A stretch of 64,000 nt of DNA from Synergistaceae bacterium (GTDB lineage Bacteria > Synergistota > Synergistia > Synergistales > Aminobacteriaceae), in assembly GCA_017444345.1 (NCBI GenBank), contig JAFSWW010000080.1, positions 20,570-84,569 of the forward strand, in the 5' to 3' direction. The notes beneath the pieces were generated by a model. It did no database searches. It was not told the origin of the DNA and saw nothing but the letters and a program-made list of their open reading frames with translations. The translations under genes were made by a program, and so were the position numbers. This document shows, one piece after another, positions 31,282 through 32,022 of the stretch (position 1 is its first letter; each line of letters opens with the position of its first letter).

Positions 31282-32022
31282 ATGAACAAAAAAAGTATAG
31301 GAATATTATATCTATGTACAGGCGATTATTATTTATGCTGGAAAGGTTTTCACGAATCTTTTGAGAAAAATTTTTTGCCCAATACAATAAAGAATTATTA
31401 CGTATTCACAGATCAAGTTGAAAATATCCCCGAAGATGAGCGCGTAAAAGTTTATTATATAGATCATTTGCCTTGGCCTTTAGTTACTTTGCTGAGATTC
31501 CACGTTTTTACTAGATTCAGAAAAGAAATAGAGAATAATGACTATTTAATGTTTGCTAATTCTAATCTGGCATGTTCGCAAATAGTTACAGAGGAAGAAT
31601 TTTTGCCCAGTGAAGAACAAGAGATCTCTGCAGTTATATGTCCTTGGGCATGGAATACAAAAGCTAGATATTATTTCGCATATGAACGCGACAAGAAATC
31701 AACTGCATATGTTCCTTATAACATAGAAGGACGTTATATAATGGCGGCTCTTTTCTGCGGACGTACAGATAAATTTTTGCAGATGTCAGAAATTCTGCAA
31801 GCTAGAATTAATAGAGATTTACATAATAAAATAATTGCTAAAATTGACGACGAATCATACTTTAACAGATATGTACTTGAAAATCGTAATTTTAGAATTC
31901 TTACTCCGGCTTATCTTTATGTACCTTTAGATAACATGCCATTTGAAAATAAGATTACTGTGCGCTCAAAAAGTGAATTATTTAACGTTAATTTAGCTAG
32001 GGGGGGGGACTCCTTGCAATAA
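31282..32022 (+). CDS. GT6-family glycosyltransferase (ABO blood-group transferase-like, bacterial NxN type)
   Basis: It is collinear by eye with bacterial GT6 enzymes as I recall them (BoGT6a type): GILYLCTGDYYLCWKGF, YYVFTD, PWPLVTLLRFH, FANSNL (NxN in place of DxD), ERDKKSTAYVP, EGRYIMAALFCG, DDESYFNRY and TPAYLY. Confidence 0.8.
   Translation: MNKKSIGILYLCTGDYYLCWKGFHESFEKNFLPNTIKNYYVFTDQVENIPEDERVKVYYIDHLPWPLVTLLRFHVFTRFRKEIENNDYLMFANSNLACSQIVTEEEFLPSEEQEISAVICPWAWNTKARYYFAYERDKKSTAYVPYNIEGRYIMAALFCGRTDKFLQMSEILQARINRDLHNKIIAKIDDESYFNRYVLENRNFRILTPAYLYVPLDNMPFENKITVRSKSELFNVNLARGGDSLQ
32000..32008 (+). repeat. Homopolymeric G9 tract inside the 3' end of the GT6 gene
   Basis: The sequence ctag-ggggggggg-actcc encodes R-G-G-D at codons 240-243 of 246. 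It is the longest G/C homopolymer I noticed in this AT-rich window. Confidence 0.95.

Follow-up and report, generated by a model that had tools for sequence, protein, structure and literature searches.

Why would a bacterial glycosyltransferase gene end just beyond an unbroken run of nine guanines, when the DNA past its stop codon still encodes, in another frame, the C-terminal end that its close homologues all carry? The question is raised by an open reading frame (ORF) at positions 31282 to 32022 of a 64,000-nucleotide stretch from a rumen Synergistaceae bacterium (contig JAFSWW010000080.1 of assembly GCA_017444345.1, positions 20,570 to 84,569). We refer to this whole stretch of 64 kb as the window and to the ORF as the part under study; features are listed in Table 1. 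A preliminary description of the window, made from its letters, had picked out the ORF as a solitary family 6 glycosyltransferase (GT6) gene whose setting fits horizontal acquisition. We find that the ORF covers only part of a longer gene, cut short at the guanine tract (G9), a feature absent from that description, and we think it somewhat better than an even bet that the gene is a slipped-strand, phase-variable contingency gene caught in a tail-less or ‘off’ state.

By profile hidden Markov model, sequence and fold alike, the ORF encodes a GT6 glycosyltransferase of the metal-independent bacterial branch. Pfam family PF03414 (Glyco_transf_6) covers residues 3-213 (E 3.2e-21; 75.9 bits, cutoff 25), and the best solved relative is the metal-independent BoGT6a of Bacteroides ovatus (4ayj; E 8e-39, residues 6-231). 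An AlphaFold model made with 26 homologues has a predicted local distance difference test score (pLDDT) of 87.8; in a fold search against the PDB its top 17 matches are BoGT6a chains, with template modelling (TM) scores of 0.80-0.85, and after them come human GTA/GTB and bovine alpha3GT. The assignment made in the preliminary description is thus borne out, and a rival glycosyltransferase family finds no support. The motifs quoted there are all present in the ORF (GILYLCTGDY, YYVFTD, LLRFHVF, YERDKKSTAYVPY, EGRY, DDESYFNRY, TPAYLY and FANSNL). The proposed NXN signature stands as well: N93-S-N95 aligns with N95-A-N97 of BoGT6a, and both asparagines are invariant in a family alignment of 26 sequences. 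D190-E191-S192 falls on D191-E192-S193 of BoGT6a, with E191 at catalytic Glu192, in a column that is invariant in the family alignment; this is the catalytic Glu of the (H)DES motif, E303 in GTA and E317 in alpha3GT. K230 corresponds to the diphosphate-binding Lys231 of BoGT6a, again invariant, and R238 is also kept within the 246 residues.

The assembled frame stops six codons past the G9 tract. With one G fewer (or two more), the frame stays open for 54 codons and gives a product of 296 residues, whose C-terminal end reads ...LAIRDSILCRHL / ...YDLLAIRDSILCRHL; homologues end in ...CLRDSLLMRKL, ...YLRDSLLCRHV and ...LLRDIILSRHL. Read through the tract (for alignment only), the 296-residue form is collinear with the homologues to the final residue. 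The close homologues, which include among the nearest one that NCBI names as a protein of a Synergistaceae metagenome-assembled genome (MAG), have 274-291 residues (one has 317, with an N-terminal extension), are 55-64% identical and all have the conserved tail end; the window ORF falls 50 residues short of the full-length form. We estimate the chance of a 54-codon open frame in AT-rich DNA at about 0.015, from about 0.075 stop codons per codon.

What is lost with these residues? The window tail has a net charge of +6 and a maximal helical hydrophobic moment of 0.54, where the catalytic domain has 0.18 ± 0.09; the tails of the homologues, taken as a set, have net charges of +5 to +12 and moments of 0.5-0.9. 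In the model of the full-length homologue P0004 (pLDDT 92.1) the equivalent tail forms three helices (pLDDT 81-95). BoGT6a is built from a catalytic domain at the N-terminus and, at the C-terminus, a basic-hydrophobic-basic membrane-association domain, is still active in vitro without the latter, and has residues up to about 243 taking part in the binding of uridine diphosphate (PMC3516806, PMC3961637). From this architecture and the properties of the tail here, we place the G9 tract where the catalytic domain meets the membrane tail. Of the two, the assembled product retains only the first; the basic-hydrophobic-basic domain, missing from the assembled 246-residue frame, is encoded in conserved form once one G is taken away.

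The same alternative frame bears on what had been described as a partial duplication of the 3' end of the gene. An exact 13-mer, CTCCTTGCAATAA, does occur twice, with copies 122 nucleotides apart, but the supposedly duplicated region is the true 3' end of the gene in another frame. We reject a duplication at the protein level, as the full-length gene has the two copies in different reading frames. Copy 1 also reads LLAI in the G10 frame, and copy 2 is where similarity to the allele of one relative (L011) resumes (32138 onward, 91%).

The G9 tract is the only G/C run of eight or more in the 64 kb: there are 34 runs of five, eight of six, two of seven, none of eight and this one of nine. Next in length are G7 at 7262-7268, in a GT4/WecA-like gene (7177-8100), and C7 at 15687-15693, in the ORF 15498-17162; GGG makes up only 16% of the glycine codons in the other ORFs of the window. 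Related genes carry such tracts too. Among the 13 GT6 genes of a Synergistaceae-type clade (described below) whose DNA was examined, six have runs of G9-G11, located at three codon sites (Table 1) that are loops or the domain end in the models. Four of the five genes with an out-of-frame run, the window gene being one, are otherwise intact and become full-length GT6 genes once the run alone is changed, with 287 residues for L005 copy 1, 281 for L012 and 284 for L021; so corrected, these three deviate at only 2-3 of 56-58 near-invariant columns. The correction needed is one base fewer in four runs and one more in L021. No G/C run of eight or more occurs in about 158 GT6 genes from outside the clade (80 species-representative loci, 917 kb, and 80 metagenome loci, 406 kb; in the latter a scan with the family alignment gave only Firmicutes-type GT6, at most 47% identical, and no clade member). 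Repeated runs at different sites of one gene family, in one clade and mostly as the sole lesion, are in our analysis the pattern of slipped-strand contingency loci. The components of that pattern are all found: an intragenic run of at least eight that is rare in 64 kb, a one-unit change that restores a conserved full-length product, and on and off lengths at one site among relatives (at codon 148, G9 and G10 are off and G11 is on; at codon 53, G9 and G10 occur).

Homopolymers were also seen in genes beside GT6 rather than in it. An Acyl_transf_3 gene adjoining the clade GT6 of locus L095 (1152-2229) has an out-of-frame G9 17 codons past its ATG. In gut Lachnospiraceae and Treponema loci, G8-G9 runs lie in or just before neighbours of GT6 (L017 10024-10031; L052 9150-9158 and 1171-1179; L025 3099-3107; L141 5539-5547), two of them in ORFs with acyltransferase-3-like N-termini (L017 9362-10486 and L052 9083-10165). 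In the GT6 loci of these gut bacteria, glycan-modifying genes may often carry homopolymer switches.

Could the tract be an error of sequencing or assembly, the real gene being in frame? Homopolymers are error-prone, and the contigs of run X1 break inside this one (31804-32008 and 31998-32170), which fits heterogeneity or low depth. On the other side, G9 was returned by different assemblers in four assemblies, the window's and three further metagenome assemblies (L001-L003), as well as in a Logan contig of run X2 that spans the tract; three other assemblies hold the identical 246-residue ORF. In copy 1 of the NCBI MAG Synergistaceae RGIG3196 (loci L005-L008) the analogous tract is G9 by consensus in each of four sequencing runs, which come from two studies and of which two reach 60-90x. 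The G runs are real and not sequencing artefacts, and we leave the error explanation only the slimmest of chances.

The constancy that speaks for a real tract speaks against a switching one, and it is best weighed together with the other observations that tell against phase variation. We found no variation in tract length within any lineage, in assemblies or Logan contigs: the window lineage has G9 in four of four assemblies, and L012 and L013 have runs of the same length as each other. A very fast switch might have given different majority lengths among samples. Since the sequencing runs were read as Logan assembled contigs, and contigs drop minority variants, the missing variation within lineages is weak evidence. 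That five of the six G runs are in the off state belongs on this side of the balance too. In addition, the closest allele, L011, has a second frameshift outside any run, the window ORF scores 213.4 bits against NCBIfam NF041524 (a family 6 glucosyltransferase subfamily), under the cutoff of 250, and the window protein deviates at six of 56 near-invariant columns (F19C, H120C, G155A, W188I, H189D and K240R). Three of these, C120, I188 and D189, replace H122, W189 and H190 of BoGT6a, positions at which at least 90% of the homologues have H, W and H. In BoGT6a these residues, His122, Trp189 and His190, contact acceptor or donor (PMC3516806, PMC3961637).

These replacements could be early decay, and because three substrate-contact residues have changed, a recently inactivated pseudogene is a live rival. 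On that view frameshifts would simply have hit homopolymers first, and GT6 at this locus would be on its way out in several lineages; in such a gene the same out-of-frame length would be the consensus in every sample of each lineage, as we find, and the two frameshifts of L011, the 3' end that the GT6 of L004 has lost to a small-peptide module and the low NCBIfam score would all fall into place. Ordinary decay, however, makes no runs of G9-G11 at three sites in AT-rich genes of one clade only. Apart from the run, the window gene, L005 copy 1, L012 and L021 show no lesion; the rest, including the 54-codon tail frame, is intact and conserved, and the G11 of L014 is in frame. On this evidence we regard decay as unlikely, though its share of the probability is far from trivial.

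A fixed G9 might also be put to use without any change in the DNA, if slippage of RNA polymerase (or ribosomal frameshifting) on the tract yielded a soluble 246-residue enzyme and a membrane-bound 296-residue one side by side. Bacteria are known to show transcriptional slippage on long homopolymers; the G9 is a stable consensus across samples and studies, yet the downstream frame is conserved, and with the run at a domain boundary either product would be able to fold. But efficient slippage sites are known mostly as A/T runs, and slippage at the codon-53 and codon-148 runs would yield mainly useless N-terminal fragments. The required shift is also not uniform in the clade, four runs needing one base fewer and L021 one more, which argues against a programmed ribosomal signal; we reject uniform programmed frameshifting for this reason. 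Slippage as a whole seems to us decidedly improbable.

Is the 246-residue ORF instead a functional, deliberately tail-less GT6 of changed specificity, the G run and the downstream frame being leftovers? GT6 proteins without a tail exist (P0030, 247 residues), truncated BoGT6a 1-246 is active in vitro, and the ORF keeps NXN, D-E-S, K230 and R238. At two specificity positions it is alpha3GT-like. The HPG motif is C-P-W here, with W122 at the position of BoGT6a Gly124, and alpha3GT, an enzyme for non-fucosylated acceptors, carries Gln and Trp at the H and G positions of this motif; the donor-specificity motif is M-A-A-L, to be set beside H-A-A-I in alpha3GT (galactose, Gal, as donor sugar) and A-G-G-L in BoGT6a (N-acetylgalactosamine, GalNAc). 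Against such a design, the tail frame is still open and conserved, every one of the other 12 sequences in the clade alignment apart from L011 keeps the tail, and I188 and D189 replace residues, Trp-His, that even alpha3GT keeps. We give a purpose-built tail-less enzyme little credence. The residues themselves still bear on the sugar transferred. M-A-A-L and W122 suggest, as an inference from sequence, the alpha3GT combination of Gal with a non-fucosylated acceptor, and the Trp at the Gly124 position with the A-A donor motif hints that the cap made by the window allele would be alpha-Gal-like and not A/B-like. Because the donor motif differs among clade members (M-G-G, M-G-A and M-G-S in others), specificity seems variable within the clade.

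The phase-variable reading would then work as follows. The gene would encode a retaining, metal-independent (NXN) GT6 alpha-1,3-hexosyltransferase, with a catalytic domain from residue 1 to about 240 and a 55-residue cationic amphipathic tail that would hold the bacterial GT6 at the cytoplasmic membrane face, near lipid-linked glycan acceptors. Slipped-strand mispairing at replication would alter the length of the G run, which we infer to be hypermutable: G8 or G11 would give the full 296-residue membrane-targeted enzyme (‘on’), G9, the assembled state, the 246-residue tail-less product, and G10 a 262-residue product with a short unrelated end. In size the tail-less form is close to the truncated BoGT6a that is active in vitro, yet it should act poorly on acceptors in the membrane, and in this way the switch would turn the surface cap off or down in part of the population. 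Switching of an alpha-Gal/GalNAc-type cap would diversify the surface, with phages, host antibodies or lectins as the presumed selective agents. In the clade as a whole, the locus is fixed but variable, with G9-G11 switches that would have evolved at least three separate times.

How does this gene compare with systems that are already known? BoGT6a (CAZy GT6; PDB 4ayj, 4ayl, 4cj8, 4cjb and 4cjc) shares with it the GT-A fold (TM 0.85) at about 36% identity, NXN in place of DXD, the catalytic Glu in D-E-S, a conserved Lys before the C-terminus and the order of catalytic domain followed by basic-hydrophobic membrane tail. It differs at the three replaced contact residues described above, in the length of the tail (about 55 residues in the window protein against about 17 removed from BoGT6a) and in having no counterpart to the G9 run between domain and tail; our literature search found no paper on a phase-variable BoGT6a. 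Because the donor motif is M-A-A-L and not the A-G-G-L of BoGT6a, transfer of GalNAc to the H antigen cannot be assumed. Escherichia coli O86 WbnI and Helicobacter mustelae HMU12050 (BgtA) are GT6 enzymes that make blood-group B/A structures on lipopolysaccharide (LPS) (PMC2846917; PMC3516806). They too are bacterial GT6 from a gut or gastric bacterium, with a glycan acceptor of LPS type, but their partner transferases are adjacent (in an O-antigen cluster, or as a neighbouring fucosyltransferase), whereas the window gene has no adjacent glycan gene, and no homopolymer switch is described for either.

As for the mechanism, phase-variable transferases of lipooligosaccharide or LPS with poly-G or poly-C tracts are familiar from Neisseria (lgtA, lgtC and lgtG), Campylobacter jejuni (cgtA and wlaN) and Helicobacter pylori (futA and futB). 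These resemble the window gene in having an intragenic G/C run of 8-11 in a transferase for surface glycans, a one-base change that restores the frame, host-like glycan mimicry in an animal-associated diderm, and several independent tracts in one gene family. They belong, however, to GT8, GT25, GT10 or GT42, where the window gene is a GT6 of the phylum Synergistota, and the window tract, a proposed switch, sits at the 3' domain/tail junction, so that the off state keeps the whole catalytic domain. Neisseria LgtC has a C-terminal membrane-association tail, not needed in vitro, which is presumed to keep the enzyme at the inner membrane; the two proteins are alike in this cationic and aromatic segment past a GT-A catalytic domain, but LgtC is a GT8 and its poly-G tract lies in the 5' part of the gene and not at the tail junction. 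Mechanism and enzyme family are thus each known. The combination appears to be new: literature searches turned up neither a GT6 described as phase-variable nor contingency loci reported from Synergistota (Synergistetes).

The preliminary description had taken the gene for a solitary recent arrival, a view that the relatives do not uphold. GT6 adjoins the same neighbours in at least eight related Synergistaceae-type lineages, the very finding that had been named as refuting it. It lies between a TM1266-like/radical-SAM (HydE-like) pair and RND adaptor, pump and CitG genes in L005-L008, L009, L012, L014, L021 (RGIG3433) and L096; in the short contigs L004 and L010 it is directly upstream of the RND adaptor, and L011 has the downstream flank in common with the window. 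A tree of 120 GT6 proteins groups the 14 Synergistaceae-type sequences in a single clade, with a Shimodaira-Hasegawa-like approximate likelihood ratio (SH-aLRT) support of 100, nested within a group of gut Lachnospiraceae and Treponema GT6 (support 97); one clade member, P0002 of L095, is located elsewhere, beside acyltransferase and formyltransferase genes. Of the earlier claim, a foreign origin keeps some support. The tree position in a gut Firmicutes/Treponema clade fits it, and the ORF has the lowest G+C among the 51 ORFs of the window (0.325, z -2.95; at third codon positions 0.263, z -2.60). The shared neighbourhood and the tree fit one old acquisition followed by diversification in place and not a recent solitary insertion. 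Nor is there a link to a recent island: ARAGORN found no tRNA or tmRNA in 28-33 kb of the window, there is no integrase link at the GT6 locus, and carriage by phage or plasmid is rejected, with best matches of only 30-37% identity (cyanophage GT6, human faecal phage contigs and Bacteroidota replicons). That GT6 enzymes are rare in bacteria likewise does not hold, as they are common enough to give 428 stretches in species-representative genomes. The gene does stand outside any polysaccharide cluster, as had been stated, with no other glycosyltransferase within about 20 kb; the nearest is the GT4/WecA-like gene at 7177-8100.

Within this shared setting the GT6 genes themselves differ widely: DNA identity is 67-91% in the flanks and only 65-73% in GT6. 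Run X1 contains a second, L011-like allele, with tail ...GGCGTGATATTTTAGCG, joined to the window sequence from 32141 onward; this L011-like tail on the shared downstream flank means that two GT6 alleles coexist in one sample. We raise, as a tentative idea that falls a little short of an even chance, that this rumen and gut Synergistaceae clade has a hypervariable ‘glycan-cap cassette’ hotspot, in which one or two GT6 genes, with alleles 55-64% identical, lie between flanks 67-91% identical, and in which poly-G switches may have evolved at three gene sites, one of them removing only the membrane-anchoring tail. At L005 7062-8861 (JAFSJJ010000001.1, RGIG3196) GT6 is present as a tandem pair: the G9 at codon 53 splits copy 1, copy 2 is intact with 286 residues, and the donor-specificity motifs of the copies differ (M-G-A and M-G-S). 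The HydE-like radical-SAM gene at L096 586-1632 is called in two pieces (190 and 148 residues), which may be a frameshift.

Table 1. Positions of the features discussed (window coordinates, or codons of the GT6 gene for the G runs of the clade).
Feature	Position	Strand	Remarks
GT6 ORF as assembled	31282..32022	+	ATG to TAA, 246 amino acids; complete catalytic domain; product ends ...NVNLARGGDSLQ and stop
G9 homopolymer	32000..32008	+	codons 240-242, at the catalytic domain/tail junction; proposed slipped-strand switch
Tail-coding segment	32009..32173	+	encodes TPCNNSTKSFKSLSFLPKIIREPLLAVKSKVREFIFYRIYDLLAIRDSILCRHL; TGA at 32171-32173; open only in the frame with one G fewer
Direct repeat CTCCTTGCAATAA, copy 1	32010..32022	+	13 nt, exact; holds the stop codon of the assembled frame
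Direct repeat CTCCTTGCAATAA, copy 2	32132..32144	+	13 nt, exact; in the conserved tail end (D-LLAI-RD)
G run, RGIG3196 copy 1 (L005-8)	codon ~53		G9 (L005 7220-7228), out of frame
G run, RGIG3433 (L021)	codon ~53		G10, out of frame
G run, L012/L013	codon ~148		G9, out of frame
G run, L011	codon ~148		G10, out of frame
G run, L014	codon ~148		G11, in frame, 288 amino acids
G run, window gene	codon 240		G9, out of frame
Extended -10 promoter-like element TGTTATAAT	31235..31243	+	upstream of GT6; read from sequence, putative function
Shine-Dalgarno AGGAG	31269..31273	+	8 nt before the GT6 ATG
Small-peptide module (‘GC-rich island’)	30894..31216	-	about 320 nt; separate from GT6
Module extended -10 promoter TGCTAGAAT	31201-31209	-	
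Amphipathic 27-residue peptide ORF MKGLADFIRAVAMLVKAVADLINSLKK	31011..31094	-	
Convergent promoter TGCTATAAT	30904-30912	+	would give an antisense RNA

Upstream of GT6, the TATAAT-type promoter of the preliminary description is confirmed as the putative extended -10 element TGTTATAAT. It is found at the same place in the contig of a relative (the loose end of X3) and resembles the ATGATATAATGC of the RND operon (32215-32226); it is missing from the list of a sigma-70 scan because it has no -35 match. The GT6 (31234-31245) and RND (32215-32226) promoters both read ATG(T/A)TATAATGC, an extended -10 with the same flanks.

The GC-rich island noted on this side of the gene is real as well, but it is a separate small-peptide module and not a part of GT6. 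Its 5' untranslated region of about 100 nucleotides has three predicted hairpins, the third pairing CUCCCC with the Shine-Dalgarno sequence GGGGGUGAG (31097-31106), and the peptide is kept as an ORF of 24-28 residues, with in-frame indels, in four relatives. We do not take a plus-strand ORF of 60 residues at 30931-31113 for a gene: in L021 its sixth codon is a stop, and it is the minus-strand peptide ORF that is conserved. Rfam gave no match (E up to 0.1) in 28-33 kb, which places the island outside known RNA families; the module looks like a type I toxin-antitoxin system. It lies upstream of GT6 in the window and downstream in L004, L012, L014 and L021, and is absent in L005, L009, L010 and L011. 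In the goat-gut relative L004 (1010-1921) the GT6 (P0010, 239 residues) is without its 3' third: the module has replaced the 3' end, abutting GT6 at about codon 196, and the ORF continues into it. Such variable placement adds to the view of a recombination-prone locus.

What would a switch of this kind mean? GT6 enzymes make the alpha-1,3-linked Gal or GalNAc caps that define the A, B and alpha-Gal antigens, and gut bacteria with such caps are thought to shape natural anti-glycan antibodies. At the level of annotation, gene callers give short or split ORFs for these genes (246, 163+86, 161+130 and 61+243 residues), so that metagenome censuses of GT6 get neither the length nor the state of these genes right. 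At the level of the enzyme, a switch placed at the domain/tail junction offers a natural experiment on the in vivo role of the basic-hydrophobic tail in bacterial GT6. Should the phase-variable reading hold, it would add the first known phase-variable GT6 and, for Synergistota, the first description of a contingency-locus system; and if the gene does switch, commensal gut bacteria, beyond the classic mucosal pathogens (Neisseria, Haemophilus, Campylobacter and Helicobacter), would vary host-like glycans by means of contingency loci.

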